From: a virus
Lineage: Duplodnaviria > Caudoviricetes
Reading direction: 5' to 3' (one strand)
DNA length: 64,000 bases
Virus record (IMG/VR): IMGVR_UViG_3300025372_000010
Span: 1 to 64,000 of that record
Position numbers and translations under genes: made by a program. Of this stretch, positions 14,585-41,005 are shown piece by piece. The notes under the pieces are model-generated. The model made no database searches, was not told the DNA's origin, and was given only the letters and a program-made list of their open reading frames with translations. Within the stretch, counting starts at the first letter, position 1, and each line of letters begins with the position of its first letter.

Positions 14585-17500
14585 ATGGGCTTAACACAAA
14601 ACTTAGGTAAACTATCAGATATAATATCAGTGACTTCCCCTACAGGGTTGGCTATTGCTGCTAATGTTACTGCTACATCTCTTATCAAATCTGGTGGTAC
14701 TAGCTCACAGTTTCTTAAAGCTGATGGATCAGTAGATTCTAATGCATATATCACTTCTGCTGCTTTATCTTCATATGTTCCATATACTGGAGCAACTGGA
14801 GCAGTTAATTTAGGCTCTTACAATTTAAGTTTAAATGCATTGCAATTTGCAAGTATATCAACTCCTTCTTATTCAGAAGGATTAGTATGGTACGATAGTT
14901 CTCAAAAATCCTTGGCCTTTTACAATGACTCTAGTAGCTCAATAGTATATATTGGAGAAGATGTACAAATGAAAGTAATAAACAATACAGGGGCTACTAT
15001 TCCAAATGGTAGCGCAGTATATGTGACAGGAACATCGAGTGGGCAAAGTTATCCTAATGTAGCATTGGCAAAAGCTGACTCATTAAGTACTTCGGCAGTT
15101 ATAGGATTGACTAATGGAGCTATTGCTAATGGAGCAATAGGATATGTAACATCTCATGGGGTTATTACAGGGGTAAATACAAGTATGTTGACTGTTGGTC
15201 AAGTTCTTTATTTATCTCCTTATTCTGCGGGTCAATTAATGAATACTGTGCCTCCTACGGGTTATGCCGTTCAGGTTGGTACTGTTACTTATTCAAATAG
15301 TTCAAATGGCTCTATATATGTAAAGCAAACAACTCCATTAGCAGTAAGTGCTTCAACTATTACGGGAATAGTTGCAATAGCAAACGGAGGCACAGGTGCT
15401 TCAACTGCAGCAACAGCATTGAGTAATTTAGGAGGTGTTTCTTCAAGTACAACTTTAACTATTAATGGTACAACATATGATTTAACTACTAATAGATCTT
15501 GGTCTGTTGGTACTGTTACTTCTGTGTCTGCATTAACTATTGGAACTAGTGGTACAGATATTTCTTCCACTGTAGCTAATAGTACAACTACTCCTGTAAT
15601 TACACTTAATATACCAGATGCTTCTGCATCTGCTCGTGGTGTTGTTACAACAGGAGCTCAAACTTTTGCTGGTACTAAAACTTTTTCTGGTACAGTTGCA
15701 ATAGCTAATACTTCACCTTATATACCTACTACTTATTCATTAGATATTAATGGAGGTCTTCTTGTTAAAAATATAGGAAGAACTGCAAGTATAACAGTTA
15801 TCAATGCTGACCCATCAGCAGGGGGTAATAACGCCTTTGGTGTTTGGACAGTAGGTGGTACATCAGCAACATCCTATGTAGATATACAAGGATACTATGG
15901 TACTTCTGTTACAGGAAGTACAACAATCAGATTAAATAATGCTGGTGGTAATGTATTAGTAGGAAGTTTATCTGGTACAGGAACAAGAATGGTTGTTGCT
16001 GATTCAACAGGTACATTATCTACACAAGCAGTTGTTACATTAAGTAGTTTAAGCGGTGTGCCTACTACAAGAACATTAACAATTAATGGTACAGCTTATG
16101 ACTTGTCAGCTGATAGATCTTGGACAATAGCTGCTGGTGTTACAAGTTTTAATACTCGTACAGGAGCAATTACGCTGTCATCTTCTGATGTTACTACTGC
16201 TCTTGGATACACTCCATATAACTCAACTAACCCAAATGGTTATATATCAAGTTATACAGAAACATCAACTTTAGCTAATGTAACTGGAAGAGGTGCTAGT
16301 ACATCTACTAATATTACGTTAAGCGGTGGAACCACATCGTTAACTAATGGTACTTCAAATGTAATAAAATGGAGTGTAAATGGTGTAGCGGCACCAACAT
16401 TTAACTCATATAGTGCAGGTGTTAAATTAGTATTATATGATAACGTTTCTTCTACATTAGCAGGTTATACTTTGGGTATCAATAGTGGAACAATGTTCTT
16501 TACTGTTGACGCATCAACGTCTGGATACAACTGGTATGCCGGTACAACATCAGTAGCAACATTGAGTGGAACAGGTGCTTTTACAGCAACTTCATTCTCA
16601 GGAGCAGGTACAGGTTTAACAGGTACTGCTTCTTCATTATCAATTGGAGGCAATGCTGCTACAGTAACAAATGCAACATTCTATCGTCAGTTTACTGTAA
16701 GAGATGATAGAAGTGATGGTAACGATTATAGTTTATCAGCAAGACCAACTGGTCTTTATGCGATAACTAGTACTGGAACAAACGGACCTGGTTCACCTTA
16801 TTTAAGTTTGATACACGTAGCTAATGCTACGGATGTTGCATTCCAAATTGCGGGTGGTTACACATCTGATAGCATGTACTTTAGAGGAACATCAGCATTA
16901 CAAAATGGTACTGGATATAGTGCATGGAGGACTGTTATTCATAGTGGTAACTATAACTCATATGCACCAACTTTAACAGGTGGAAATGCATCCGGAACTT
17001 GGGGAATAAGTATTAGTGGTAATGCAGCAACAGCTACAAATTCTTCTCAATTAAATAGTTTATCTAAATCTCAACTATGGAATAACTCTGGTTATTCTCA
17101 TGGAGCATTTACAAGTTTTAGCGGAATACCGGATTTTGGTGAATGGTTTGTACATCAAGACAGTTCAATTACAGATGGGCCATCTGGCTTAAGTTACCAA
17201 TATTACACAAAAACAGTTGGCTTAGGTAATGATTATGCATATTCACAATATGCGATGCAAACTGCTGTAAATAGATATGGTTATGGTACAACATTTTATA
17301 CTTGGGTAAGATATAAAGAATCAGGTACATGGCAGTCATGGAATAAAATGGCTGCTGGTTATGCTGATAGTGCAGGCAGTGCTAGTTCAGCAAGTACAGC
17401 AAGCACAGTAACTCATTATGCATCAAGAGCAGATGGTACTTATTATAATGTAGTGTGGGCAGCAGGTAATCCATCTTATATGTATTCAGCTGATTCTGTT

Positions 17501-18937
17501 CAGATACAATCTAGTACAGGAACATTAAAAGCTTCTGTTTTAGTAGCAAATGGTGGTGGTACAGGATGGGGGGATGTTTATATAGGTTCTAGTTCAGGAT
17601 GGGGTAGTGGAAGTTATCCTACGATAGGCTCAAATGGTGGTGCAGGAAATGCTACAAACTCATTGATAATGCTTCAACATCCTCATGTACCTTTCTTAAC
17701 AGGTAATGGAGCAGGAACTGATTCTGGTAGAGCAAGTATAAGAATGGCTGTTGATACAGCTGCTTCTAGTTGGTGGGATATGGGTCTTTACGGAGATGCA
17801 TTCCATTTATATAGAAGTGCTGGAGGTGGAAGATTAATGACAGTTGATTCATCTGGTAATGCTACTTTTAGTGGTTCAGTAACTGCTTCTAGTTTTAGTG
17901 GTTCTCTTGCATGGGGAAATGTATCTAGCAAACCAGCAGCTTGGTTAAATGCAACAAATTTAACAGGTAGCGCTTCCCCAAATACCACTTTAGTTAGTGG
18001 ATTTTACAATGACTATGCAGGTTCTGGTAATCCAGTTGGTACATGGTTTAGTTATGTAAATGTAAGACATGAAAACCCAAGCAACGTATACGGTCACCAA
18101 CATGGAATGTCTTTTTATGATAATCACTTTTGGTTTAGAAGTTATGCAGGAGGTAGTTATCAATCTTGGGCAAGGGCATTAGATACCATATCTGACCCAT
18201 ATCCTTCCAACATGAATCAGTATGTGAGAACAACTGATGGTGCAACATTTGATACAGTTCGTGTGGGCAACTGGTTTAGGCCAACTGGTGATTGCGGGAT
18301 TTATTTTGAAACTTATGGAAGAGGTTTAAGGGCAGCAGATTCTGAAGGCATGTCTTATGGTAATGTAGCTGTTTATGGTACAGGCATTAACAACTGGAGC
18401 GGTTATGGAATTAATGATAATGCTGGGTATAAGAGAATATTCATGTCTCAAAATGGAAACTTTGGTATATACGACCAAGTGTATGGCCATTGGATGATAT
18501 TCTTTAGTATGAGCACAGCTTCGTATGCAATCGGTAGTGATGCTGCAGTATCAGGATGGTCGTTATATGTTCCTTATGGAGTTTATACATCAAGCGTTTA
18601 TCAATATTCTGATGCTCGTGCTAAAAAGAATGTAGTAACTATAAATAATGCCTTAAATAAAGTAAAATCTTTACGAGGTGTGTCTTATGAATATATTGAT
18701 AAAGGAGATGGTACTAAACATCAAGGAAGTGAACTTGGATTCATAGCTCAAGAAGTTCAGCCTATTGTTCCTGAGGCAGTAGATTATGTTTCACAAAAAG
18801 ACCAATATGCTATGAGTTACACAGGACTTACAGCTTTGCTTACGGAGGCTATTAAAGAACAACAAACACAAATAGAGTCTCAAAAAACAGAAATAGAAGA
18901 ACTAAAAGATCTAGTAAAACAACTTATAAATAAATAG
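14585..18937 (+). CDS. Long tail fibre with C-terminal intramolecular chaperone (peptidase S74)
   Basis: 1450 aa, S/T/G-rich; YSDARAKKN..LRGV.Y..GFIAQEV..PEAV..Y..L..LL.EAIKEQQ. Confidence 0.9.
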   Translation: MGLTQNLGKLSDIISVTSPTGLAIAANVTATSLIKSGGTSSQFLKADGSVDSNAYITSAALSSYVPYTGATGAVNLGSYNLSLNALQFASISTPSYSEGLVWYDSSQKSLAFYNDSSSSIVYIGEDVQMKVINNTGATIPNGSAVYVTGTSSGQSYPNVALAKADSLSTSAVIGLTNGAIANGAIGYVTSHGVITGVNTSMLTVGQVLYLSPYSAGQLMNTVPPTGYAVQVGTVTYSNSSNGSIYVKQTTPLAVSASTITGIVAIANGGTGASTAATALSNLGGVSSSTTLTINGTTYDLTTNRSWSVGTVTSVSALTIGTSGTDISSTVANSTTTPVITLNIPDASASARGVVTTGAQTFAGTKTFSGTVAIANTSPYIPTTYSLDINGGLLVKNIGRTASITVINADPSAGGNNAFGVWTVGGTSATSYVDIQGYYGTSVTGSTTIRLNNAGGNVLVGSLSGTGTRMVVADSTGTLSTQAVVTLSSLSGVPTTRTLTINGTAYDLSADRSWTIAAGVTSFNTRTGAITLSSSDVTTALGYTPYNSTNPNGYISSYTETSTLANVTGRGASTSTNITLSGGTTSLTNGTSNVIKWSVNGVAAPTFNSYSAGVKLVLYDNVSSTLAGYTLGINSGTMFFTVDASTSGYNWYAGTTSVATLSGTGAFTATSFSGAGTGLTGTASSLSIGGNAATVTNATFYRQFTVRDDRSDGNDYSLSARPTGLYAITSTGTNGPGSPYLSLIHVANATDVAFQIAGGYTSDSMYFRGTSALQNGTGYSAWRTVIHSGNYNSYAPTLTGGNASGTWGISISGNAATATNSSQLNSLSKSQLWNNSGYSHGAFTSFSGIPDFGEWFVHQDSSITDGPSGLSYQYYTKTVGLGNDYAYSQYAMQTAVNRYGYGTTFYTWVRYKESGTWQSWNKMAAGYADSAGSASSASTASTVTHYASRADGTYYNVVWAAGNPSYMYSADSVQIQSSTGTLKASVLVANGGGTGWGDVYIGSSSGWGSGSYPTIGSNGGAGNATNSLIMLQHPHVPFLTGNGAGTDSGRASIRMAVDTAASSWWDMGLYGDAFHLYRSAGGGRLMTVDSSGNATFSGSVTASSFSGSLAWGNVSSKPAAWLNATNLTGSASPNTTLVSGFYNDYAGSGNPVGTWFSYVNVRHENPSNVYGHQHGMSFYDNHFWFRSYAGGSYQSWARALDTISDPYPSNMNQYVRTTDGATFDTVRVGNWFRPTGDCGIYFETYGRGLRAADSEGMSYGNVAVYGTGINNWSGYGINDNAGYKRIFMSQNGNFGIYDQVYGHWMIFFSMSTASYAIGSDAAVSGWSLYVPYGVYTSSVYQYSDARAKKNVVTINNALNKVKSLRGVSYEYIDKGDGTKHQGSELGFIAQEVQPIVPEAVDYVSQKDQYAMSYTGLTALLTEAIKEQQTQIESQKTEIEELKDLVKQLINK

Positions 18938-18940
18938 ACT

Positions 18941-21900
18941 ATGTCAATGGACAACGGTAGGAAGACCTCTAATCTCATAAATATTGTACAGTATGATGAA
19001 ACTACTGGTAATATAGGACTTAATGGAGTTCCTGTATCCGGGTATGGTGCATACTTACATACTACTAATAATGATGGATCTATTGGTATAGACTCTTCAG
19101 CTAGTATTAATGCTCTTTATTTATTAAAGAACGGCACTAAAAACTTTGAGATTAGTTATGATACTACTAGTACAAAGATTTTTAGATTACTTCCTTATCA
19201 ATCTACATCATTCTTTCAGATTGGTAACCCATCTAATGCTGGTACAGATTATGTATTTATATCAGAATCTACTTATGGTAATGTATTAATAGGTCCGGGT
19301 TTATCTAATGCTACAGGATATATTACTGGAGCTACTGCTTCTATACATAAGATTCAATTACATGGAGCAGTATTTGCAGATAGTTCTATACAAGCTTCTA
19401 GTTTTAAAATAACAGGAGGATCTAGTACAGGTTTCTTAAAAGCGGACGGTACTGTAGATTCTACTACATATGTTACAGGTAATCAGTCTATCTCTATTAC
19501 AGGGGATGCTACAGGTTCTGGAACAACATCAATTGCTCTTACATTAGCTAATTCAGGCGTTACTGCCGGAACTTATGGATCATCTACAGCTGTACCAGTT
19601 ATAGTGGTAGATTCTAAAGGTCGTATTACAAGTGTAAGCACATCTAGTATATCTGGTTCATTAACTTTTACAGGAGATGTAACAGGAACTGGTACTACAG
19701 GATCAACAACAACTTTAACAGTAACTAACTCAGCTGTAATAAGTAAAGTCCTAACTGGCTTATCTATTTCTGGCTCGGGTATTCTTGCAACAGACTCTAT
19801 ATTAACTGCTTTTGGTAAAATCCAAAACCAAGTGAATGGTCTTGTTGGAGGTATAATGTATCAGGGTACATGGAATGCTAGTACAAATAGTCCAGCATTA
19901 TCATCAGGCGTTGGTACAAAAGGATACATGTATAAAGTAGCCACAGCTGGTACTACTACAATAGATGGTGTGTCTCAGTGGAATATAGGTGACATGATTG
20001 TATTTGATGGTACAACATGGGATAAAATAGATGGTATTGCTAATGAGGTGGTTACAGTATTTGGTAGAACTGGTACAGTGACAGCTCAATCAGGAGATTA
20101 TACCACTACATTAGTAACAGAAGGAACAAATCTTTATTATACAGACGCAAGAGCTAGAGCAGCACATAGTTTAACAACTACAGGTTCATCCGGTGCAGCT
20201 ACATACAGTTCTTCTACAGGAGTATTTAATATTCCTAACTACACTCTATCTGGTCTTGGTGGAGAGCCTGCAATCACAGCTGGTACAACAAGTCAATACT
20301 GGAGAGGAGATAAAACATTCCAAACTTTAAATACTACAGCAGTAGCCGAAGGTACTAACTTATACTTCACTAACGCTAGAGCTCAAGGAGCCATCACTCT
20401 TACTACTACAGGTAGTTCTGGTGCTGCTACATATTCTGGTGGTACATTAAACATTCCTACTTACACATTAAGTGGTTTAGGAGGGCAGGCTGCTTTATCA
20501 GGTACAGGTTTTGTAAAGATAAGTGGTAGTACTATATCTTATGATAATAGTACATATTATTTAGCTTCTAATCCTAATTCTTATATTGCATTAACTGCAT
20601 TATCAGCTACTTCTCCTTTGTCTTATAATAACACAACAGGAGCGTTTAGTATAACTCAGGCTACAAATGCAACTAATGGATATTTAACAAGTACAGACTG
20701 GACTACGTTTAATAATAAACAAGCTGCCTTAGGTGGAACAGGATTAGTAAAATCTACGGCAGGAAGTATTACATATATAACTGATAACTCAAGTACTTGG
20801 AATAGTGGTTCAACTATTGCCAACTCCTTGAATGGCGTTTCTCCTATTAATTTTAATAGTATTACAGGAGCAATAAGTATCTCACAGGCTACGACCTCAA
20901 CGAATGGTTATTTATCAAGTACAGATTGGAATACATTTAATGGGAAACAAGCTGCGTTAAACGGAACAGGATTTGTTAAGATAAGTGGTACTACTATATC
21001 TTATGATAATAGTACATATCTTACTGGTATAACTAGTGCACAAGTTACTACAGCATTAGGCTATACTCCTTATAATTCTACTAACCCCTCAGGCTACTTG
21101 ACTGGAATTACTTCTAGTCAAGTTACAACTGCATTAGGATTTACACCATACAACGCTACTAACCCAAGTGGTTATTTAACAGGTATTACATCTTCTCAAG
21201 TAACCACAGCATTAGGTTATACCCCATACAACTCAACAAACCCATCAGGGTATATTACAAGCTCAGCACTTAGTTCTTATTTACCATTATCTGGAGGTAC
21301 ATTAACAGGAAACTTATATGGTACAAGTACATACTTTAGTGGATACTCTGATGTAAATCCAACTACAGGTGCGTTTAGATTTTATAATGGAACTACTTTT
21401 ACTGGTGGACTTGGAACTGGTTCTTGGGCTGGTCTTGGTGCATCTAATGATATTGTAATGTATTTGAATAGTGTAAACTATTATATATCAAATCAATCAA
21501 CTCAAATATTTAAGATTACTTCTGCTGGAGCTGCTACTTTTTCTGGGCATATTACAACAGGTGCATCTTCTGGATTTACATCTAGTCAAAAAGATATTAG
21601 CGGAGGTTTATTAGTTACAGGCTCTGGAATGTCAGTTACTCAAAATGATGATACTTTTTATCCGTTAATTAGTAACTATAATATTGTATCAGGACAAGGT
21701 TATTATAATTATCCTGCATTTGGTTTTATGAGACCTACAACTAATATTAATGGAGATGCTGTTATTAGTAATAGAGGTGATGGCTTAGCTACTGTATATT
21801 GGAAGTTTAAACCAAATGGTGATTTAACCATACAAGGCTCATTTAATGGTAGTGGTGCAGGATTAACTGGAACAGCAAGTTCTTTAACTGCAGGTTCAGC

Positions 21901-23269
21901 GAATGGTTTAGGTTCAGAAGCTTATTATGATCAATCTAGTAGTCCAAAAAGTTATATGCTTCAGAGTAATGGAGGAGGGGCAGGTATTTATATGGTGCCT
22001 TCTTCTAACTTTTTATCTACAAGCGGTGGAACGATTAGTGGAAGTTTAACTATAACAGGTGATTCAAATTTAGAGATGTATAAATCTCAGACAATAGATA
22101 TGTCTGGTAGTGCTTATAGTACAAGTAACTACTATCCTGTAATGATAGGTGTTAGTACAAATGGAGCTACTATACAGATTCAATGTAATCTTAATACTAA
22201 TGTTCCATCATGGTCAAACCATCCTGCTGGTTTTACTTTAAATCTTAAATGGAGTACAACTGGTTCTGGATGGGGTGTAACTGCTGTACAAAGAGTTATT
22301 CATCAATATAACGAAGGATTTAATAATGCTACTATATGTGGAGGTATTACTCAAATGAGTACATCATCTCAAGAAGTAGTTTGGTTAAGAGGTGGTGGTG
22401 TTTATAATTTTATATACAGTAGAAACCTTAGTGCTTTTTCTTCAAGTACTACTTATACTAACCCTTATAATACTGAGTCTGTTACTCCTACATCATCAGC
22501 TCAAAATAATGTATGGAGCTCAGCTTCTCATCCTATAGGTGTATCTAATGTGTATGCTACATCAGAAATAGTAACAAGTTATAGATTTAGAACTCCTAAT
22601 ATGAGTATGGGTTATTGGGATGGTGCTAACAATAGATTAGAAGCTGATTCTACAAGACCAATGCTTATTACATCTTATGGTAGTTATTTAGCTCTTGGTA
22701 TGTCAGGTAGTGCTAATTTAACTATAAACTCATCAGGTAATGTAAGTTTAAGTGGTTGGATGAGAATGGGTCAGTTTAATAACTCACAAACTAATGGTGG
22801 AGAAGCTTGGATAGGTAGAGCATCTGATAGGCAGGTAGGTATTATGACTGTTCAACTTGGTAATAACTCAAGTTCACGATTTGAAGTAGTAGACTATGGT
22901 TGGTCAGTTGTTTTATTTAGAGCTGATGGTAATGGTAACTGTACAGCATCTGGAGATATTACAGCTTATTCTGATAAAAGAGTTAAGGAAAATATTGTTC
23001 GCATAGATTCAGCTTTAGATAAGGTAAAAGCTATTAATGGTTATTATTATAATAGAACTGATATTGCAGATAAAACAAAGAAAATTGGTTTTATAGCTCA
23101 GGAAGTTTTAAATGTAGTTCCTGAAATAGTTAATTATGATAATAAAGAAGATAGATATTCTATATCTTATGGTAATACTGCAGCTTTGCTTGTAGAAGCT
23201 ATAAAAGAACAACAAGGTCAAATAGAAGATCTTAAAAAACAAATTGAATACCTAGTAGAAAATAAATAA
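18941..23269 (+). CDS. Second long tail fibre with C-terminal intramolecular chaperone (peptidase S74)
   Basis: 1442 aa; YSDKRVKEN..GFIAQEV..PE.V..YG...LLVEAIKEQQ; EGTNLY repeats; YQGTWNASTNSP domain. Confidence 0.9.
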   Translation: MSMDNGRKTSNLINIVQYDETTGNIGLNGVPVSGYGAYLHTTNNDGSIGIDSSASINALYLLKNGTKNFEISYDTTSTKIFRLLPYQSTSFFQIGNPSNAGTDYVFISESTYGNVLIGPGLSNATGYITGATASIHKIQLHGAVFADSSIQASSFKITGGSSTGFLKADGTVDSTTYVTGNQSISITGDATGSGTTSIALTLANSGVTAGTYGSSTAVPVIVVDSKGRITSVSTSSISGSLTFTGDVTGTGTTGSTTTLTVTNSAVISKVLTGLSISGSGILATDSILTAFGKIQNQVNGLVGGIMYQGTWNASTNSPALSSGVGTKGYMYKVATAGTTTIDGVSQWNIGDMIVFDGTTWDKIDGIANEVVTVFGRTGTVTAQSGDYTTTLVTEGTNLYYTDARARAAHSLTTTGSSGAATYSSSTGVFNIPNYTLSGLGGEPAITAGTTSQYWRGDKTFQTLNTTAVAEGTNLYFTNARAQGAITLTTTGSSGAATYSGGTLNIPTYTLSGLGGQAALSGTGFVKISGSTISYDNSTYYLASNPNSYIALTALSATSPLSYNNTTGAFSITQATNATNGYLTSTDWTTFNNKQAALGGTGLVKSTAGSITYITDNSSTWNSGSTIANSLNGVSPINFNSITGAISISQATTSTNGYLSSTDWNTFNGKQAALNGTGFVKISGTTISYDNSTYLTGITSAQVTTALGYTPYNSTNPSGYLTGITSSQVTTALGFTPYNATNPSGYLTGITSSQVTTALGYTPYNSTNPSGYITSSALSSYLPLSGGTLTGNLYGTSTYFSGYSDVNPTTGAFRFYNGTTFTGGLGTGSWAGLGASNDIVMYLNSVNYYISNQSTQIFKITSAGAATFSGHITTGASSGFTSSQKDISGGLLVTGSGMSVTQNDDTFYPLISNYNIVSGQGYYNYPAFGFMRPTTNINGDAVISNRGDGLATVYWKFKPNGDLTIQGSFNGSGAGLTGTASSLTAGSANGLGSEAYYDQSSSPKSYMLQSNGGGAGIYMVPSSNFLSTSGGTISGSLTITGDSNLEMYKSQTIDMSGSAYSTSNYYPVMIGVSTNGATIQIQCNLNTNVPSWSNHPAGFTLNLKWSTTGSGWGVTAVQRVIHQYNEGFNNATICGGITQMSTSSQEVVWLRGGGVYNFIYSRNLSAFSSSTTYTNPYNTESVTPTSSAQNNVWSSASHPIGVSNVYATSEIVTSYRFRTPNMSMGYWDGANNRLEADSTRPMLITSYGSYLALGMSGSANLTINSSGNVSLSGWMRMGQFNNSQTNGGEAWIGRASDRQVGIMTVQLGNNSSSRFEVVDYGWSVVLFRADGNGNCTASGDITAYSDKRVKENIVRIDSALDKVKAINGYYYNRTDIADKTKKIGFIAQEVLNVVPEIVNYDNKEDRYSISYGNTAALLVEAIKEQQGQIEDLKKQIEYLVENK
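21020..21253 (+). repeat. 3 x 78-bp in-frame tandem repeat (LTGITSSQVTTALGYTPYNSTNPSGY)
   Basis: Units start at 21020, 21098 and 21176; proteins nearly identical while synonymous codons differ. Confidence 0.9.
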
Positions 23270-25694: not shown

Positions 25695-26912
25695 ATGTTA
25701 GCAACAAAATCTAATACTGCTGATAAGGGATGCTCTCCTGTATCTTCTAACTGTGTCATTTGGCAGGGTCCCAACCTGTCATGTATCAACCTTTGCAACG
25801 GTGATACCATATCTGATGTTACTTACAAGATTGCGACTGCACTTTGTACCATCCAAACTGCTTATGATTTAACTAACTTAGATCTAAGCTGTCTTACTAC
25901 TTTCTGTACTAATGTTACAGGACCTAGTTCGAGATCCCTTCCAGCAGTATTGGAGTTTATTGTTCAAAAGATTTGTTGTATAGAAGGTCAGATAGTTAGT
26001 CCACAAGATAATACTACTTATACAGAGCCTTATTTAACACTACCTACTTGTTTACAATATACAAATGCTCAAGGACAAACTGTAACAAGTCTTATACATA
26101 ATCAGTTTACTTTAACAATGGCTACCAAAGTTTGTTCTTTGTCAGCTACTGTTTCTACTCATAGTTCTCAGATAACTACTTTACAAAGTCAAGTAGCAGC
26201 TTTACAAGCAGCTGGTGGATATACATTACCTACAATGGTTCCTAAATGTGTTCTTCCTTCTATTGCTACTCCTATAGACCAAGTGTTGGTTGCTGTAGAA
26301 ACTCAGTTCTGTAACTTAGTTACTACATTAGGATCTAATGCATTATTGACTGCAGCTTCTGCTCAACAATGTGCTGGTCTTGCTTCAGCTCCTGCTTTAA
26401 GTTCTACAGGTACAATGAGCTCACTAACTGGTTGGAATTCAACTGTTACTAATGTAGCTCAGTCTTTACAAAACTTATGGATTACTGTATGTGATATTAG
26501 ATCAGCTGTATCTACTTTATCTGCATCTAATGGTGCTGTAAACTGTAGTCAGTTTATCTTAGGATTCACAGCAGCTACTAATAGTGATCGTAGTCAAGTA
26601 ACATTATTCTTTAATGCAAACACTACTATCCCATCTGGATTTGCTAACTGTAACCAACAAGGTTCAGTAGTAACTATTACTGATGGTCAAGGTCATACTT
26701 ATACAGGATATGTAGATTTAATTGCTGCATCTACTAACTCTGGTGGAGTAACATTTACTGTTTCTTCTGCTAGCTTGAATACATCTCAACCTTACACTGT
26801 AACAGTTAATGGTTGTATTTCTAAGAATGGTCAAACATGTTCTAAAACAGCTACATACACTGTTTCTGTTCCTTGTCCAGTAGTAAGTGGTGTATCTGCA
26901 ACATTAATCTAA
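25695..26912 (+). CDS. Cys-rich fibre protein (probable head fibre)
   Basis: More than 20 Cys; C..SSNCVIWQGPNLSC..NGD motif; short coiled coil; Ig/FN3-like C-terminus. Confidence 0.65.
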   Translation: MLATKSNTADKGCSPVSSNCVIWQGPNLSCINLCNGDTISDVTYKIATALCTIQTAYDLTNLDLSCLTTFCTNVTGPSSRSLPAVLEFIVQKICCIEGQIVSPQDNTTYTEPYLTLPTCLQYTNAQGQTVTSLIHNQFTLTMATKVCSLSATVSTHSSQITTLQSQVAALQAAGGYTLPTMVPKCVLPSIATPIDQVLVAVETQFCNLVTTLGSNALLTAASAQQCAGLASAPALSSTGTMSSLTGWNSTVTNVAQSLQNLWITVCDIRSAVSTLSASNGAVNCSQFILGFTAATNSDRSQVTLFFNANTTIPSGFANCNQQGSVVTITDGQGHTYTGYVDLIAASTNSGGVTFTVSSASLNTSQPYTVTVNGCISKNGQTCSKTATYTVSVPCPVVSGVSATLI

Positions 26913-26913
26913 A

Positions 26914-27195
26914 ATGGCATCTGTACATATTACATGGACCCCTGGGTCTGGTAATACCGGACAAGATGTACAATATAAGTTGTCTACCTCATCTACTTGG
27001 ATTTTATTTCAAAGTGTGAGCTCAACAACAAATAGCGTAGTTATTTCAGGACTATTAGATAGTCATATATATAATGTTAGGATTTTAAACTATTGTGCAG
27101 GAAGTGGAGCAGCTTCTCCAGGACCTACAATAAATGTAAATACTACTCCATCTAGTTGTAATCCTCCTTCAGGAGTTAGTGCAACTTTAGCTTAA
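26914..27195 (+). CDS. Single FN3-domain protein
   Basis: ITWT..VQYK..W..ISGL....YNVRI..C is the FN3 pattern. Confidence 0.8.
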   Translation: MASVHITWTPGSGNTGQDVQYKLSTSSTWILFQSVSSTTNSVVISGLLDSHIYNVRILNYCAGSGAASPGPTINVNTTPSSCNPPSGVSATLA

Positions 27196-27215
27196 TAATA
27201 TAAAACTTTTTAGAT

Positions 27216-27869
27216 ATGTCATGTGGTTGTAACGATAGTCCTCTTCCTCTTTCAAACTGTAATCCTTGTGCAGGTTGTGCACCAGCGAATGCAACAAGCT
27301 TACCTCCATGTGCTAATGGAGAACCTTGTGAAGAGATTGTAACTTCTGATTGTACTCAATATGTAGGACCTAATCTTCCTGCATTAGGTGTACTTAATGG
27401 AGACCGTTTATTAACAGTATTGACTAAACTACATAAACTAGCTAATAGTTTAATTCAAACTCCTATTGTATATACTAACTTTACTGTAACTGCAACTACT
27501 GCAGTTCCTTTCATAGTTAACTATTTGGGACTTGGTCCTGTATATACATCTACTGCTGGAGCAACTAGTTCTAATACAACTATTACAGTTGGTAGTACTA
27601 CAGGTTTAGCAGTTGGTATGGTTGTTTCTGTTAAATCAGGAACTGGTGCTTTTGCTGCTAATACTACAGTAACAGCTATTCAAGGTACTACACAATTTGT
27701 AGTGAATACACCACCTACTACAGCTTTATCAGGAGGTCAAACTATAATCACAGCTCATGGTTCTACTCATACTCCATTTACAGTGACTGTTTTACAAAAT
27801 GCTCCACAAACTATTGGTGCTTTTGTAGGTTCTCCTGTAATAGTATCTGGAACCGGAACTATTGTATAA
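27216..27869 (+). CDS. Cys-rich fibre protein paralogous to 25695
   Basis: CEEI..SDC..Y.GPNL....NGD motif; beta insert similar to the one in 7557..8900. Confidence 0.65.
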   Translation: MSCGCNDSPLPLSNCNPCAGCAPANATSLPPCANGEPCEEIVTSDCTQYVGPNLPALGVLNGDRLLTVLTKLHKLANSLIQTPIVYTNFTVTATTAVPFIVNYLGLGPVYTSTAGATSSNTTITVGSTTGLAVGMVVSVKSGTGAFAANTTVTAIQGTTQFVVNTPPTTALSGGQTIITAHGSTHTPFTVTVLQNAPQTIGAFVGSPVIVSGTGTIV

Positions 27870-27881
27870 AAACCATAACTT

Positions 27882-28304
27882 ATGTCTTGTTCTACATTCA
27901 AAACGCTTAATATATCATTTGTAGCTCCATCTATTGCTCCAGCTAATGGATACATAATTCGTTGGAGAATTGTTGGAGATACCACTTGGAATGCACCAGC
28001 TAATCAATATGGTAATCCTATACAAGTGGCTAATATACCATCTTGTTATAATATTGAAGGATTTATTCAAGCAGATTGTGGTAACGGAAATACAGGTAAT
28101 CCTGTAAACTTTGCAATCACTTCTTCTAGTAGTGCATGTTGGCAGTTTACTTTACAATCTACTGCTAATTATACATATACTCCTTGTGGATCTAATATAC
28201 CTCAAACAATAACAAATACATCTGGATCACCTCAAACTATATGTGCTATTGATGGTACTGTATCTGGAGGTAGCTATTCTAGAACTGTTTCTTGTAATGT
28301 ATAA
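27882..28304 (+). CDS. FN3-like Cys-rich protein
   Basis: ISF....APANGY.IRWR..W..IQADCG, then a Y.YTPC...ICA module. Confidence 0.65.
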   Translation: MSCSTFKTLNISFVAPSIAPANGYIIRWRIVGDTTWNAPANQYGNPIQVANIPSCYNIEGFIQADCGNGNTGNPVNFAITSSSSACWQFTLQSTANYTYTPCGSNIPQTITNTSGSPQTICAIDGTVSGGSYSRTVSCNV

Positions 28305-28313
28305 TAATTACTA

Positions 28314-29291
28314 ATGTCACATACTCTTACTATAAACTTTACGGCTGCTAGTCCTGCTCCTGCTAATGGGTATTTAGTTACTTATTGGCCTACAGGTAGC
28401 CCATCTAGTACAACTACAACAGTTGTAACAAGTAGTCCAGCTGTGATAACTGGTTTAACTGGTACAGATTATACTGGTACAATACAATCACAATGTGGTA
28501 GTGGACAAGTGTCAAGTACACAAAACTTTACTGCTACAACTAGTTCATGTTTATCTGGTACTACAACTGCCACTGCAAACTGTTCTAGTGGACAAACTCA
28601 TGCATTTACAATTGCTTCAGGTTACACTGCAGTAATTACTCCTAGTGGATATTACTATAGTGGGTCAGGAACAAGAGCTTATACAGCTTCTATTACTAAC
28701 TCAGCTGATAGTAGTATATTGTACACTTTTACATATACTCAAACAGGTTCTACTCAAGGAACATGGAATACTACTCTTGCTAATAATACTCTTTCTGCAG
28801 GTAGTTATAATCTACACTTAAACCAAGTTGATTGTTCTTCTAGCTCTGGTAATTTTAGTTTATCAGTTGGAAGCTGTGCTCCAGTTTCTGGTGGAGGTGG
28901 TGGAGGATCTACTCCTGTATTAACATGTTTTACATTCAGTGATTCTTTAGATCATTATGAAGATAGTACTACATGTCCAGGTACAAGTGATACTTATAAT
29001 AAGACAACTGTTACTTTAAAAGATCAGTTTGGTAATCCTTTTGTAGCAACAACTAATGTAGTAGTTCATCTTAACTATACATATGAAGAACATATTGATT
29101 ATCCAGGAGACACTACAACAACAGGTGATTCTACTATAACAGTATATGCTGGTCATTCTACAGGATCAATATTATATGCTTCTTACAGAAATGAAAGAGG
29201 TAACTATGATTCTAACTGTAGTGGATACTATATGAGAACAACAATAAACGGTACAGGCAGTGGTAATACACTAAGCTGGTGTAACGGATAA
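28314..29291 (+). CDS. FN3-like multidomain fibre/adhesin protein
   Basis: INFT...APANGYLV.YW..ITGL...Y.G.IQSQCG followed by further beta domains. Confidence 0.65.
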   Translation: MSHTLTINFTAASPAPANGYLVTYWPTGSPSSTTTTVVTSSPAVITGLTGTDYTGTIQSQCGSGQVSSTQNFTATTSSCLSGTTTATANCSSGQTHAFTIASGYTAVITPSGYYYSGSGTRAYTASITNSADSSILYTFTYTQTGSTQGTWNTTLANNTLSAGSYNLHLNQVDCSSSSGNFSLSVGSCAPVSGGGGGGSTPVLTCFTFSDSLDHYEDSTTCPGTSDTYNKTTVTLKDQFGNPFVATTNVVVHLNYTYEEHIDYPGDTTTTGDSTITVYAGHSTGSILYASYRNERGNYDSNCSGYYMRTTINGTGSGNTLSWCNG

Positions 29292-29476: not shown

Positions 29477-30793
29477 ATGAATCTTATTCAAACAGTGTAT
29501 GGGTCTCTCAGATGGAAGAAAACTGATGAGTTCTGTGCTACAAAGTTAGGTATTTCTCTTAAAAAATACCAAGAGATTAAGAAACAAATTTTAGAAACCA
29601 AGGAACTACTTCAACAAGAACTCGATGATAGTCTAGTAGACTTAACGGGTAAGAGGATGCTAAATATTCTTGATGATGAACTAATTAAAGATGAATACAT
29701 CTCTAATCTAGAAGATCAATTAGTTGATGCTTTTAACCAGACTAAAGAAAAAGTAGTAGAGTTTAAAGAAAACCTAGACGAGGGAACAGCAGAGATTAAG
29801 GGTATAGCTTTTACAGAACCTCAGAGCCCAGAGGAAATAATCAGAATCTTAAAGATAGATGAGACTAAATGGAAGCTTAGTTCCTATTGGAATAAGCAAC
29901 ATAAAAACTACTGGCTTATATCAGCCATGGTTACTCACAAGAAGCCAGAAGCAATAGATCTTCTAGCTGAGACTCTTAAGACATTCACTCCCAAGTATTT
30001 ACCCGTTGCAGAGGTACACATAAATGAGAAGTATTCCAAGCCTACAGTGGGGATTTTGTCTTTACAAGATCTCCATTTTGGTAAGGAAGGAAACAACACT
30101 ATTATTAATGACTTCCAAGACTGTGTTAGAAACCTTATATTAAGAGCATATCATTCTCATAATCTAGATAAGTTAATCTTTGTACTAGGCGGGGACATTC
30201 TTAATATGGATACCTTTATGGGACAAACTACTAAGGGAACACCTGTAGACTCTGATCAGAGAGCTCAAGAAGCTTATAACACAGCTTTTGATTCTTTATA
30301 CTGGGCTATCAACTTTATTAAGCAGTTTTGTAACCATTTAGATGTAGTTTATGTTCCAGGTAACCATGATAGATTAAGTTCTTACCACTTGGCTCATGCT
30401 ATCTCTAAATGCTTCATGAACACTCAACAGATTACTTTTCATACAGAATATAGTGAAAGACAGGTTATTACCTATGGTAGTAACTTTTTTGCTTTTGAAC
30501 ATGGGGATGTTTACTCTAAGAACTCTCCTTTAGTGTATGCTACAGAGTTTCCTAAGCTTTGGGGAGATACTATTTACCGCACCTGCTTTACTGGTCACTT
30601 CCATACTAAGAAGTCAGTAGAATATGTTACTGAAAATGAGATACATGGCTTTGCTATTAAGACTCTCCCAAGTCTTTCAAAGTCAGACTACTGGCATTAT
30701 CATAATAAATACACTGGTTCTAAACGCCAAGCTATCTTAGAGCTACATGACTACAATTATGGTAAAGTGTGTGAGTTAACCCATAATGTCTAA
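29477..30793 (+). CDS. Calcineurin-like metallophosphoesterase with N-terminal HTH-like region
   Basis: All five motifs present: DLH, GGD, GNHD, EHGD, GHFH; N-terminal CATKLGISLKKY. Confidence 0.9.
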   Translation: MNLIQTVYGSLRWKKTDEFCATKLGISLKKYQEIKKQILETKELLQQELDDSLVDLTGKRMLNILDDELIKDEYISNLEDQLVDAFNQTKEKVVEFKENLDEGTAEIKGIAFTEPQSPEEIIRILKIDETKWKLSSYWNKQHKNYWLISAMVTHKKPEAIDLLAETLKTFTPKYLPVAEVHINEKYSKPTVGILSLQDLHFGKEGNNTIINDFQDCVRNLILRAYHSHNLDKLIFVLGGDILNMDTFMGQTTKGTPVDSDQRAQEAYNTAFDSLYWAINFIKQFCNHLDVVYVPGNHDRLSSYHLAHAISKCFMNTQQITFHTEYSERQVITYGSNFFAFEHGDVYSKNSPLVYATEFPKLWGDTIYRTCFTGHFHTKKSVEYVTENEIHGFAIKTLPSLSKSDYWHYHNKYTGSKRQAILELHDYNYGKVCELTHNV

Positions 30794-31440: not shown

Positions 31441-32115
31441 ATGGCTAAAAATACTATTGGAAATATCTGTTCAAGAATCCGTAATCAGATGAAAGCATCT
31501 AAACAAGATACTTTCTTAACTGATAGGATTATCTACACGTTTGTACTTAAGCATGCTAAGCAGCTTATGAAGCGTGAGGATGGTCGTAATAAACTTATGG
31601 CATTTACTTCTGTAGTACAGACATTAGACTATGTTGAATTAGAAGAGATAGATAAAGTAGAAGCTTGTTGTACAGGTATTAGATCTGATATGACTATAAA
31701 ACGTACTAAAGATAAGCTTCCTGTATTTTTACAAGGATACTACGGACCATTGATTCGTACAATTAGTTCTTTAGATAATTCTGAAGAGCTTCAACCTATC
31801 TTACCTAGTACTTATGTATCTATTGCAAATGCTACTAACTTTAAATATAATAAGACTAAGTACTACTGGTATTTAAACGACTATTTATATTTTCCTAATC
31901 TAGAGTGGGATGCTATTCGTGTAGAAGGAATATTTGAAGATGATATTAGTAAATTCACTTGTGTAGCTGACAGTTGTATAGTTAGACAAGATCAGTCTTT
32001 TAATGTACCTGATTATTTATTAGTAGAGTTGGAGGGTAATGTATTTAGAGACTTAATGGGTATGCTACAAGTTCCTCAAGATCCTACAAATGACAAACAA
32101 AATCCTGATCGATAA
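31441..32115 (+). CDS. Tail ring (tubular) protein
   Basis: 224 aa; RT..KLP, YW..NDYLY, V.GIFED, P.D..ND motifs; synteny. Confidence 0.65.
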   Translation: MAKNTIGNICSRIRNQMKASKQDTFLTDRIIYTFVLKHAKQLMKREDGRNKLMAFTSVVQTLDYVELEEIDKVEACCTGIRSDMTIKRTKDKLPVFLQGYYGPLIRTISSLDNSEELQPILPSTYVSIANATNFKYNKTKYYWYLNDYLYFPNLEWDAIRVEGIFEDDISKFTCVADSCIVRQDQSFNVPDYLLVELEGNVFRDLMGMLQVPQDPTNDKQNPDR

Positions 32116-33002
32116 TGAACACTCAGCTTAAATATAGAACATTTGATCAGTTATTAGCATCTGTTGGTACAGATCTATATATGTATAATAATGAGAACAT
32201 GATTGAGCCTGCTCAACTTATTAAAGTTGCACAGCGTGTTAGTTATGATCTTGGCTTACGTATACATGGAACTAAAGAGAAAGTATTAGATGTAGAAAGA
32301 AGAAAGGCTAAACTACCTGATGATTTCTATGTACTTAACTATGCTCTTTTATGTGGCCATTATAAAGTTGAAAGACCTGCTTTACAAGGAGATCAAAGAG
32401 AGTCTTTATGTGTATCTGATATTTGTAGAAGATGTCATGGTAATGTACATGAGTGTGGTTGTGAAGATACATACACTATAGCTAAAACAGTTTATGGTGA
32501 TGATTCAGGATCTTTAGTACTTGTACAAAAGGTAAAGACTGAAGTGAGAGTATATGATCACTTTGAGATGCTTCATATGTTAAAAGAAAGAGGGTCTAAG
32601 AAGAATCATCATGATCAAAATCATGCTGAGATAAAAAATGGTTATATTTATACTAATATAGAAGAGGGTAAGATAATGATATCTTACGAAGGAGCTTTAG
32701 AAGATGAGCAAGGTAACTTATTAGTTTTAGATCATCCAGAGATTAATGAGTATTATGAGTATGCTGTTAAACAGCGTATCTTAGAAAACTTATATCTTAA
32801 TGGAGAAGATGTAGGACAAAAGATGTCTTTAATAGAACCTAGATTAAAAGCTGCTAGAAACTATGCCTTAACTATTGTAAATACTCCTAATTTTTCTGAG
32901 ATGAAACAGTTGTGGGAGATGAACAGAAAAGCTCAGTATATGAAGTATTATAATATGTTTAAAGGTAACGAATTCATTGAGTGGATTAAACCTTTATACT
33001 AA
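32115..33002 (+). CDS. Tail tubular/ring protein (P22 gp4-like family)
   Basis: KAKLPDDF, I.TN.EEG.I.ISY, DE.G..LV.D motifs; Cys-rich insert; upstream of the muzzle gene. Confidence 0.7.
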   Translation: MNTQLKYRTFDQLLASVGTDLYMYNNENMIEPAQLIKVAQRVSYDLGLRIHGTKEKVLDVERRKAKLPDDFYVLNYALLCGHYKVERPALQGDQRESLCVSDICRRCHGNVHECGCEDTYTIAKTVYGDDSGSLVLVQKVKTEVRVYDHFEMLHMLKERGSKKNHHDQNHAEIKNGYIYTNIEEGKIMISYEGALEDEQGNLLVLDHPEINEYYEYAVKQRILENLYLNGEDVGQKMSLIEPRLKAARNYALTIVNTPNFSEMKQLWEMNRKAQYMKYYNMFKGNEFIEWIKPLY

Positions 33003-36300: not shown

Positions 36301-37956
36301 CACATTTATTTATTCTTTAATGGAGTGAGAGACTTTTATGTAGAGTCTGAGATTAATTTAGCTCAGAGAGACTGGGAAGATGATCTATCTAAACGTCACT
36401 ATGATCCTAATGAGTATACTGACTATACATCTTTATTCCGATCAGATATTGTAAAGAGTGGTAATTTCTGTAAGTATGATTATTCATTAAGTGTATCTAA
36501 GTTATTTACTAACTTTGCAAGTTGGGGTACATTATATCCTAGAGATTATAATCCTGCTACAGCTGCTAGTTGTTATGTCTACAGACCTAATAGAGTGATA
36601 TATTCTTTACCACAAGAACAAGAGCTTAAGAAAGATAACTGGAGAATCTTCTTAACTAATAACTATAAAGACTTTATATCTCCTATCACTGCTGTAAAGA
36701 AAGTAAATAAAACTGGTGCCCTCTTTATGATGGAGTATCAAAGTCCATTCCAGTTTATTGGAGTTGAACAATTGCAGACAGATGCTGGTACAAAAATTAC
36801 TGTAGGAGATGGTGGATTATTTAATCAAGCTTTACAGAATATAGTTAACTCAGATGAATCATATGAATATGGTTCTTGTCAGAATAAATATGCAGTGGCT
36901 GCAACTACTCATGGTATTTTTTGGGTGAGTCAAAACCAAGGAAAGATCTTCCAATATTCTGGAGGATTAAATGAGATATCAAGAGATGGTATGAAGTGGT
37001 GGTTTGCAAAGTATCTTCCTTCTCAGCTTCTTAAACAGTTTTCTGATTATCCTTTATATGATAATCCTGTAAAAGGAGTTGGTGTACAAATGATATATGA
37101 TAACACTGATGAGGTAATATATATTACTAAAAAAGATTACAAGCCAATAGTAAGTGATCTACAGTTAGAGGGAGAGAAGTTTTACCGTGTAATAAATGGT
37201 CATAAGACTTATTTTGAATTAACTGATACTAGTGTATTTGAACCAGCTCATTGGACATTAAGTTATGATCCTAAGAATAAAGTGTGGTTATCATTCCATG
37301 ACTGGATTCCTTCATTCTTGATTCCAGGTAAAGCTCACTTTATGAGTGTAAATACTAATAGCATCTGGAAGCATAACGTTAGATGTGATCAGTACTGTAA
37401 CTTCTATGGTAAAGATTATCCATTTGAAGTGGAGTTTGTTTCTTCTACAGGACAAGCAGTTAACTCTATGAGAAACATAGAATACATGCTTGAAGTGTAT
37501 AAATACTATAATGACTGCCGTGATAAGTTCCATCTATTAGAGGAGAACTTTGATCAGGCTATGATATATAACTCAGAACAAGTGAGTGGATTATTAGAGC
37601 TTGTAATGAAAGCTAAGAATAACCCATTAGATGGATTAACCTATCCTAAGATTAATGCTAGTAGTATATCTATTAATTACTCTAAGATAGAACAGAAGTA
37701 TAGATTTAACCAGTTCTGGGATATTACTAAAGACCGTGGACAATATACTGGAAATGAACTACCAATGTTTGTTACAGCTGCTAATGGATATCAATATCAA
37801 GTTAATCCATCTTATATAGACTATAATAAACATATACTAGAGCGTAAGAAGTTTAGACACAACTTAAATAAAGTGTGGTTACGCAAAATGGTAAGTGGTA
37901 GTCATAAGTTCTTGTTTAAACTATCCAACGAAAAACTACAATCTTCTTATAGATAA
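33361..37956 (+). CDS. Tail stabilisation/muzzle protein (P22 gp10-like family)
   Basis: 1531 aa; NTFTKGM..D, YLRDE.Y.F.I.W, GYWESTE.YP, IRHHKMPD, FGGDTY, WTLSY.P...W.SFHDW.P. Confidence 0.9.
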   Translation: MANTQQNPGATTNTFTKGMVKDYSEMYVGEGLWTHARNAVNNSHEGQLGVIGNEPANLFCVTLPYSLIGCIHLLDDQWAIFTTDDADSEIGIFDESACSYKKVINDPALGFNRSHLITGVFRKRFDCERLVYWDDGLNPSRFMDIDNPPLQYTESIVNGCIIKTYTKRLDTEQIRLAPLVQQPCLTLSKGTGSGTLANGSYQVCLGYTINENRVTDYIGLSNVQSLFTHENLTGSLDLKITNMDSHFDEFELVVISTVNNQSVAKRLGYYYTTQGTIHIDAILPDLFTVPINLIPLRTEPIEKTDAMYSVNNYLLRVGTYSKYQFNYQQQANKIITKWAAVQYPETYYYKGGHNVGYLRDEQYAFFIRWVYNTGERSSSFHIPGRQATAAELVNVYAGDAFETIESINNIPQTRQLWQVQNTAGVDDLNSYTLSDGGVVLAKGHMGYWESTEIYPADRPDIWGPLCGQPIRHHKMPDVTIPGGELLNQYNSVNNTVVILGVEFDNISVPVDENGNPISSIVGYEILRGSREGEKSIIAKGMFNNMRQYDIPNNPLVKGLYQNYPYNDLRPDYLLTSDANIGTVGHADVNLGSPLTSYKKNYLSFHSPETNFSKPYLSGEEVKIYQELSGTAQGMFSQPYKHPKFKMLSNFSSQLASTIGTISVIGDFLGSIAQDFNLTLKGTEALPFDKKLTLTKIPNFPLTFGGGASFLGIGGSVTGSIPNPVIVAENIAIGAYNVAVAIAMSYIEAESTGEQLFNIIQALVPRIQFGLQYDSHGFYNNARTNVAGNRRKRIEKSAYVGGNLQSFDTDYHVNNIYRSNFVVIKTEEDIADPTVVDNSRFRISEKGGNINTVVSSTISGYYGAIKVSFPSQYGQLESIRQVPTGSCVFPIGTDVLYKSDVIFGGDTYVGRYTEKNAFTFFNSWPVGEPDEYEIDYRNYTNIPYPRFWLNSSKTVFSLFKNASLQRHLDDRESSLFYVSKGHIYLFFNGVRDFYVESEINLAQRDWEDDLSKRHYDPNEYTDYTSLFRSDIVKSGNFCKYDYSLSVSKLFTNFASWGTLYPRDYNPATAASCYVYRPNRVIYSLPQEQELKKDNWRIFLTNNYKDFISPITAVKKVNKTGALFMMEYQSPFQFIGVEQLQTDAGTKITVGDGGLFNQALQNIVNSDESYEYGSCQNKYAVAATTHGIFWVSQNQGKIFQYSGGLNEISRDGMKWWFAKYLPSQLLKQFSDYPLYDNPVKGVGVQMIYDNTDEVIYITKKDYKPIVSDLQLEGEKFYRVINGHKTYFELTDTSVFEPAHWTLSYDPKNKVWLSFHDWIPSFLIPGKAHFMSVNTNSIWKHNVRCDQYCNFYGKDYPFEVEFVSSTGQAVNSMRNIEYMLEVYKYYNDCRDKFHLLEENFDQAMIYNSEQVSGLLELVMKAKNNPLDGLTYPKINASSISINYSKIEQKYRFNQFWDITKDRGQYTGNELPMFVTAANGYQYQVNPSYIDYNKHILERKKFRHNLNKVWLRKMVSGSHKFLFKLSNEKLQSSYR

Positions 37957-37957
37957 A

Positions 37958-40900: not shown

Positions 40901-41005
40901 CCAGCTAAAGCTAGAGAAATACTACATGATAAAACCGTTAATGGTCATCCTATAACAGATAAACAAAGAAGATTCTTTGGTTGGATATCTTCCCAAAAAA
41001 AGTAA
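37958..41005 (+). CDS. Modular virion cargo protein with xxxGG motifs; includes a histidine phosphatase domain (probable start ATG 37958)
   Basis: Cys-free from ATG 37958; eight xxxGG motifs; FLRHG..SP..RA.QT..PGGES..VVTH domain at about 40290-40740. Confidence 0.8.
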   Translation: MNKLLQLLVDTGDVSHRALPGLQKAQVGGTSLFQAPAPIYDNIPSLGAVRKNIMMQQQAAQQAANRAAQERQGSISKAEAPRSASSKAWAMATHPMTAAQYVIAGRGIPEHFDRGPENNLDNAMDVINPFFYANEAGQAISGAGKYAMDPYHNNPAMLGEAALHGITSVPLFTEFAPELKGLTKNTGKNLRQFLGYATQGVPFESTIPRLPEGAVKDFRHIQEIAKMKESGANLADRMKYGIKNVPDNHFERIFEMPKSEAQTYLDKGFGQNPEPKNYSVLPNRSFASDPIDFDPRQGTIDDVRQLILQGYITHHPETGNMLLANDVHHLTNSQLDNALNDLSAAHDRHYDQIMRGHQMPAESPREVYSLEGSDADIDRDFMDYTTMPSDNFVSNARNTGRFNFNLDKNPRAGMNMKQQAMYELGDAAKTGVSRLKDMLIDASQNYPYYSGNNVAHKVPSLFKADNTLKGLANTVTSQVNEGLKSGDVFTGSENTSHNSWLPQVKQVFNYKEGAPQFLGYKPMNQLGYLNKMGVENEDIAKYLNSEIDLLQGRNKIPNDIQRPFMKGDRVMLPQYGVKQFQVGGPIVDPLGQWAHPGQITRIPSNQITMQGVPYPVLGVGSNGQHQMMYPGGEYSFGGAQHVDEYPMMAGGGITHAGHHFPGYNRPIADSDGVHKKVVLAKVGNKTKVVHFGAKGYSNNYSAKARVAYKSRHAGEGSQSKLTAGYWAYHNLWSSHSPANHAGKHSGHGERFAQDGGEMNMYQDGGGYNDNQIYNSVPKRVTFLRHGITDEDLRGENSGQNDIPINNKGVYETLKTAHQLADRPVDYLVNSPVPRAAQTTAILADELSLPHVVNPYLAAWNLGKFSGRPEKEFNEKYFVKNPDVPVPGGESFNNFKERVLTGLDQLDGMPGNPAVVTHSKTLQLLEALQANKGVWNKKAEQKYLSTKTKEDKQLYEFDTNLAKIGGNLEYGGLFKAAFGGPTPAKAREILHDKTVNGHPITDKQRRFFGWISSQKK

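Follow-up and report, generated by a model that had tools for sequence, protein, structure and literature searches.

A fibronectin type III domain split between neighboring genes of a crAss-like phage and its possible role in joining the parts of a modular virion fiber

In the type V pili of Bacteroidota (FimA/Mfa1), each subunit receives a C-terminal donor strand from its neighbor in place of its own N-terminal strand, the tip subunits have no donor strands, and a self-complemented state of the monomer exists (PMC13655056). In chaperone-usher pili, an incomplete immunoglobulin (Ig)-like fold is also completed by a strand of the neighbor, but there the C-terminal G strand is missing and an N-terminal extension is donated, and assembly depends on a periplasmic chaperone and on an usher (PMC13655056). 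We analyzed a locus of five co-directional genes at positions 25695-29291 of a 64,000 nucleotide (nt) stretch of virus DNA (the window), which is the first 64 kb of the 112,862-bp IMG/VR record IMGVR_UViG_3300025372_000010 (estimated completeness 87%). In this locus, a fibronectin type III (FN3) domain is divided between proteins: A and B end in a tail equivalent to the first strand (strand A) of the fold, and B, D, and E begin at its second strand (strand B). We give a probability of about 65% to the reading that strand complementation in trans joins a stalk (protein A), an optional extender, and variable caps. The five genes are:

25695-26912, + strand, gene A, 405 amino acids (aa): proposed fiber stalk and strand donor
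26914-27195, + strand, gene B, 93 aa: proposed extender, FN3 domain from strand B (acceptor) with a donor tail of its own
27216-27869, + strand, gene C, 217 aa: Cys-rich N-terminus with a module common to A, no donor
27882-28304, + strand, gene D, 140 aa: proposed cap, acceptor FN3-like domain at about residues 5-79 and Cys-rich C-terminal domain
28314-29291, + strand, gene E, 325 aa: proposed cap, acceptor FN3 domain at residues 1-77 (28314-28544)

Type V pili are the closest analogue in topology, and the topology of the locus agrees with theirs by sequence: the putative donor strand is C-terminal, the missing strand is N-terminal, and D and E resemble the tip subunits in lacking donor strands. 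The host phylum is probably the same. In contrast, the pilins are transthyretin-like lipoprotein precursors from which a gingipain cuts away the anchor strand, and they form long homopolymers without covalent links, whereas here the fold is FN3, the start codon itself encodes the vacancy, and a disulfide is predicted. Unlike in chaperone-usher pili, strand A is missing here and the donor is a C-terminal tail; chaperone or usher genes did not turn up in Pfam and PHROG scans of the neighboring genes, although no search was targeted at them. In the engineered FN3 domain Tencon (PDB 4m6a), to which Foldseek matched the B model best (E-value 6e-3, TM 0.61), strand A can come from another chain, but this homodimer swap is artificial and involves a complete domain that is not genetically split. 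A full-text literature search, outside of which most subscription journals lie, found no report of strand complementation or of a split FN3 domain in phage fibers. The pilus-like joining of phage fiber parts appears to be undescribed for phages and would be a variant of a known principle.

The genes B, D, and E start only 1-2 codons past an in-frame stop, and gene B starts 1 nt past the stop codon of gene A in a different reading frame. The three proteins have no leader or lipobox and begin directly at strand B; in none of them does a single chain comprise the full set of seven strands with strand A among them. The Pfam fn3 profile (PF00041) matched residues 3-65 of B with profile positions 15-75 of 84. 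When the tail of A was read through into B, the match widened to positions 3-75 and the score increased from 21.7 to 24.6 bits (gathering threshold 25 bits), compared to 44.7 bits for the homologue in the related locus L004. The AlphaFold2 (AF2) model of B, with a predicted local distance difference test (pLDDT) score of 78, was aligned to solved FN3 chains by VIA-align with Z 8.8 and a root-mean-square deviation of 1.5 Å over 71 aligned residues. In this register, residues 1-72 of the model lay on chain residues from about 15-17 to about 90, up to the G strand. A profile of 17 E-type N-termini aligned with strand B of human 10Fn3, and human fibronectin was matched with an E-value of 2.9e-6. 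Comparison of B with E and of B with D by hhalign resulted in the correct register with weak scores (E-values 0.008 and 0.001). No solved structures close to A or to the acceptors were found.

We compared the locus to domains that are not split. A profile of the E-type domain was searched against 1.84 billion protein representatives, and the best 150 of 1642 hits were analyzed. Multi-repeat proteins of up to 5632 aa accounted for 91 of these 150 hits; in them the domain is internal with strand A attached, and those with a name were "fibronectin type III domain-containing protein" of Bacteroidota. The remaining 59 were single-domain proteins of 75-663 aa, in which the domain started at residue 1 (57 proteins) or was one residue short (2 proteins).

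For the profile test, 143 unsplit domains were taken from giant FN3-array proteins of Bacteroidota, and the tails of A and B were prepended to the acceptors, with 500 shuffled tails and 500 natural 16-mers as controls. The acceptors alone aligned from profile position 19 (B), 17 (D), and 19 (E), and with either tail the alignment began at position 2-3. The scores increased with the two tails by 5.8/8.0 bits for B, 4.1/5.6 bits for D, and 9.7/9.6 bits for E. For B and also for D, these gains were reached by 10 and 7 out of 500 shuffled tails, and for E by 0 and 1; among the natural 16-mers, it was 0-4 out of 500. A previous profile built from the paralogous covalent FN3 domains of the phage group was underpowered and gave +1.8 bits for B, with 24 of 300 shuffles equal, and values near zero for D and E.

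The C-terminus of A is CPVVSGVSATLI and that of B is CNPPSGVSATLA. The tails are:

26874-26909, + strand, donor tail of A: Cys394-Ile405, 12 aa, equivalent of FN3 strand A with the leading Cys
27157-27192, + strand, donor tail of B: Cys82-Ala93, 12 aa

In the unsplit domains, the 12 residues in front of strand B follow the pattern Cys-x-Ala-Pro-Thr-Gly-Leu-x-x-x-x-Ile, which is also the pattern of the A and B tails. Moreover, the length from the Cys to the end of the tails, 12 residues, is the same as the distance from the Cys to strand B in the unsplit domains. We concluded from the profile positions and the equal length that a single peptide bond of the A-B turn is the site of the cut and that no part of the domain is lost. 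An earlier note on this DNA, which was made from the sequence alone, had stated that A and B end in strand-A-like tails and that B, D, and E begin at strand B of an FN3 domain. Both statements were confirmed, the first by the sequences themselves and by the widened profile match, the second by the alignment starts and the in-frame stops just upstream.

The unsplit domains also showed a paired occurrence of Cys residues. A Cys in front of strand A and a Cys in the FG loop were both present in 118 of the 143 domains and both absent in 20; the FG-loop Cys alone was seen in 5, and the Cys in front of strand A never occurred alone. Such co-occurrence is the signature of an intradomain disulfide, and by standard FN3 geometry both sites should be located at the N-terminal pole of the domain. 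In the split proteins the corresponding half-cystines are invariant, with Cys394 of A and Cys82 of B on the donor side and three FG-loop residues on the acceptor side:

27094-27096, + strand, Cys61 of B: FG loop, predicted partner of the donor Cys, position 75 of the unsplit-domain profile
28077-28079, + strand, Cys66 of D: FG loop
28494-28496, + strand, Cys61 of E: FG loop

Since the half-cystines are on separate donor and acceptor chains, complementation would create an intermolecular disulfide, which is predicted here to link the donor Cys with the acceptor Cys in the FG loop. The co-occurrence in the unsplit domains supported the earlier suggestion that Cys residues lock the joints. The tails of crassviruses are stabilized by intermolecular disulfides, with which the predicted bond would be consistent, while their fiber assemblies are unresolved (PMC10172136).

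A search with A resulted in 369 related viral loci, 80 of which were fetched (numbered with L here). The same search with B alone gave no confirmed locus, and the relatives were reached through A. The pattern of tails and strand-B starts was conserved in dozens of related contigs, and we regard the split as old and maintained by selection. The split between A and B was kept in about 20 distinct relatives with 48%-62% identity, with gaps of -3, 2, 7, 9, or 14 nt and in all three relative frames. Neither a sequencing error nor a conserved signal for recoding is compatible with these variable frames, which also ruled out programmed frameshift or read-through as a candidate. It is therefore extremely improbable that A is joined to B in one polypeptide by frameshifting, read-through, or sequencing error, despite the distance of only 1 nt between the A stop and the B start and despite two relatives in which B is in frame with A, 7 nt downstream. 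The split is present in independent contigs, a conserved slippery site was not found, the gene after the B tail is C and not an acceptor, and in L082 another gene is located between donor and acceptor.

The homologues of B mostly have two FN3 domains, and the internal junction between them shows the same Cys-Pro strand-A motif as the junction between A and B. The B protein of the window has one FN3 domain, and its end aligned best with the G strand of the second FN3 domain and the tail in L002 (3445-3987). The alignment suggests an in-register deletion that fused strands B-F of the first domain to the G strand of the second domain. In L023 and L024, B is absent and the A tail is retained. In distant relatives, A is covalently continuous with strand A and the FN3 domain after it, and it still ends in an orphan tail; this fused A is followed by a C-like gene and then by one acceptor gene. 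L083, from another lineage, encodes a protein of 198 aa that combines acceptor and donor, and a 743-aa acceptor follows after 10 nt. In L082, the donor tail is found on a 104-aa Cys-rich protein (3879-4193), which is a version of the module common to A and C.

A raw pattern census of the clusters counted 26 with donor and acceptor, 7 with neither, 6 with an acceptor only, and 5 with a donor only. On inspection, all 5 of the donor-only cases were due to the G strand of the C-like protein, and 4 of the 6 acceptor-only cases had donor-like tails that the pattern had missed. In the whole genome, A and B are the only donors, and B, D, and E are the only acceptors. We also tested C as a third donor and rejected it: its tail gave no profile gain, and the equivalent in distant relatives is a G strand, belonging to a complete FN3 domain that the counterpart of C carries together with its own strand A.

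The earlier note had further suggested that the 93-aa protein B could polymerize as an extender, in the manner of a pilus. This was not supported. B-type proteins behave rather as one optional extender module, absent in L023 and L024 and fused in the distant relatives; the proposed role as an optional extender follows from B being both acceptor and donor. The view of D and E as alternative caps fits the data, as a donor tail was present in 0 of the 59 single-domain relatives of the E type, all of which (59 of 59) have the FG-loop Cys. D has a small Cys-rich C-terminal domain after the acceptor domain and no donor tail. The E-type proteins have a 75-aa acceptor domain in common, followed by unrelated distal domains, including SprB repeats in L082. 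Common acceptor domains with unrelated distal domains are a pattern typical of receptor-binding modules, and the variable C-terminal part of E is presumed to be receptor-binding.

Protein A has a Cys-rich module at its N-terminus, long helices, an Ig-like domain that is complete (about residues 285-390), and the free C-terminal tail. In the AF2 model of A (pLDDT 69.5), the Ig-like domain had pLDDT values of 78-91 with its last strand at 380-390, and residues 391-405 formed an unpacked coil with pLDDT decreasing from 60 to 50. Residues 320-402 of A (26652-26900, in the Ig-like domain) matched chains of bacterial surface-layer proteins, 4uj7 (E-value 9e-6) and 4uid (E-value 2e-5). The N-terminal module is presumed to serve in docking:

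25740-25898, + strand, N-terminal module of A: residues 16-68, common to C

This block (A 16-68) showed 36% identity to residues 42-95 of C (BLASTP, E-value 1e-5) and is highly conserved in the alignment of A.

The AF2 monomer of B gave a different picture from A. Its tail residues 86-92 were modeled as a strand with pLDDT of about 80, folded back on B, and the linker 70-79 had low confidence (pLDDT <50). The modeling of the tail as a strand in the vacancy indicates that the tail fits the FN3 vacancy. The model would also be expected if the C-terminal strand of B filled its own vacant A position in cis, similar to a circular permutation, with the other tails and edges having no partner function, and type V pilins offer a precedent in their self-complemented monomer (PMC13655056). 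We consider such completion in cis unlikely. The 9-10-residue linker would have to span the whole domain, and in most B homologues, which have two FN3 domains, the tail is about one domain further off. In A, whose tail is unpacked, there is no vacancy to fill in cis; D and E have the vacancy but no tail; and the fused relatives have a covalent strand A yet retain the orphan tail. On the question raised earlier, whether the last 12 aa fold back in cis, the B tail does so in the monomer model with its low-confidence linker, and the A tail stays unpacked.

We modeled A 276-405 together with B. The complex scored 0.33, compared to 0.07 for the best control, which was rated as weak support. In the calibration, 58 of 80 solved complexes passed the mark of this score, as did 2 of 110 mismatched pairs; at scores of 0.60 or below, only 7 of the 80 solved complexes passed it, together with both of the passing mismatches. 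The contact agreement between runs was at least 81% and the pLDDT of the partner was at least 70; the halves of a split domain can pass this test through likeness to solved FN3 structures. The central claim of the earlier note, that the C-terminal strand of one protein completes the FN3 fold of another, is well supported by comparative evidence (the cut in the A-B turn, the conserved tails, the paired Cys residues, and the unpacked A tail), and the complex prediction added weak support.

Strand complementation in trans would proceed as follows. The FN3 domain, which is one piece in the Bacteroidota arrays, is cut at the single peptide bond of the A-B turn. The donors (stalk A and extender B) would present the leading Cys and strand A as a free 12-residue C-terminal tail, and the acceptors (B, D, and E), which begin at strand B, would fold with an open sheet edge. 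After folding, the donor tail would lie antiparallel along the first strand of the acceptor and restore the seven-strand sandwich. In an oxidizing medium, the donor Cys would bond to the FG-loop Cys of the acceptor, so that the joint would be locked covalently. The inferred order is stalk A, then the optional extender B, then cap D or E. The variable distal domains of the caps would act as adhesin or receptor-binding modules that are exchanged, or displayed in parallel, on an unchanged stalk.

Several points weigh against complementation in trans. The domains in the count of Cys co-occurrence are not independent of one another. L059 and L079 have an acceptor without a clean terminal donor tail. 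The monomer model makes a self-complemented state of B possible, and the sole complex prediction, that of A 276-405 with B, is weak. The genome has two donors and three acceptors, and these unequal numbers leave the stoichiometry unexplained unless A is multimeric. The presence of A to E in the virion is a proposal, in which a head fiber and a tail fiber are indistinguishable. Strand A is an edge strand, and an FN3 domain may be stable without it.

The position of strand A at the edge, the unequal numbers of donors and acceptors, and the weak complex score would all fit a different history, in which gene fission left the tail as a dangling, inert linker, and the acceptors are functional six-strand domains that assemble by other contacts or not at all. 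This is rather unlikely, though somewhat less so than completion in cis. Conservation of the tails slightly exceeds the protein means (0.77 versus 0.71 for A and 0.75 versus 0.71 for B), and their length is exactly 12 residues. In 25 sequences of A, Cys394 was invariant and Pro393, Pro395, and Ala402 were at least 90% conserved; in the B alignment, Cys82, Pro85, and Ala90 were invariant. The A and B tails have seven residues in common with different codons, including AGT/TCA switches for serine. Identical peptide cores with different codons indicate that the peptide is conserved and not a DNA repeat, and this synonymous divergence argues against a relic. Repeated DNA in the tails, or gene conversion from one to the other, was considered and rejected, as no repeat was found and the codons differ. 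It also speaks against a relic that both half-cystines are invariant, though they almost never occur singly in unsplit domains, and that residue 1 is the start of the domain in all 59 single-domain relatives, counting the two that are one residue short.

The cluster of genes A to E, which we infer to encode parts of a modular virion fiber, is flanked by S74-domain fiber genes on one side and by the genes for CrAss_Ring_2 and CrAss_Ring_1 on the other. The fiber genes at 14585-23269 are two adjacent paralogues (1450 and 1442 aa) with C-terminal Peptidase_S74 intramolecular chaperone domains (E-values 5e-16 and 1e-12). The ring genes encode 224 aa (31441-32115, PF25702 CrAss_Ring_2, E-value 4e-20) and 295 aa (32115-33002, PF24228 CrAss_Ring_1, E-value 6e-15), both matches being above the cut-off. 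These ring-protein matches indicate that the phage is crAss-like with a tail barrel of the crassvirus type. The major head protein is encoded at 2830-4449, and the capsid protein had distant matches only, with 29% identity to Leptolyngbya phage Lbo-JY46 and 24% to Azobacteroides phage ProJPt-Bp1. No cultured relatives of the region or of A were found by blastn and tblastn in 50,697 phage records.

The virion of PhicrAss001 is of the same type, as indicated by the ring proteins of the window; crassvirus fibers are composed of several proteins, and the tail is stabilized by intermolecular disulfides (PMC10172136). In contrast to the joints proposed here, its gp22 docks in the hub by its N-terminal 26 residues; the contacts of the distal fiber are unresolved, and a split domain was not described (PMC10172136). 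If confirmed, the joints of A to E would add strand complementation of the pilus type to the ways in which phage fibers are built, and they may help to explain the assembly of multi-protein crAss-like fibers that was not resolved by cryo-electron microscopy. We suggest, tentatively and with less confidence than for the locus itself, that a natural, disulfide-locked split FN3 domain of the "tag and catcher" kind may serve a large group of crAss-like Bacteroidota phages as a general fiber connector, with several interchangeable caps per stalk and with extenders inserted or even chained to vary fiber length. A sequence rule could be applied to metagenomes to recognize the three kinds of protein (stalk, extender, and cap): donors have a tail with 12-15 residues from the Cys to the C-terminus, and acceptors have strand B as their start and a Cys in the FG loop. 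With regard to host range, caps with new distal domains would be swappable as cassettes on an unchanged stalk.

In SpyTag/SpyCatcher, derived from split CnaB2, the peptide of a C-terminal strand completes the Ig-like domain and is locked covalently, as would be the case here. That pair is engineered and uses an isopeptide bond, whereas the phage pair would occur naturally, with a disulfide as its lock. For biotechnology, a natural protein-ligation pair could be provided by a short peptide that is secured by a disulfide after completing a small, stable domain.

The acceptor FN3 domain of E (28314-28544) is closest to the repeats of giant FN3-array proteins of Bacteroidota (P0001 and P0023). These array proteins have up to 41 repeats, and NCBI entries are MBL0047827.1 and MBK5285727.1. 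The kinship points to the host phylum; as judged from sequence, it hints at a Bacteroidota host and at the capture of a host surface domain.

In many relatives, a conserved 67-aa gene (L004:10050-10253) is located between two cap genes of the E type; it is absent from the window. Between the cap genes and the tail ring genes of the window, positions 29477-30793 encode a 438-aa protein that matched the PHROG "DNA repair exonuclease" (phrog_704, E-value 2e-48), and the position of this gene is kept throughout the related loci. Further downstream, a 1036-aa protein (37895-41005) carries a histidine phosphatase domain (PF00300, E-value 4e-24) at residues 802-945.

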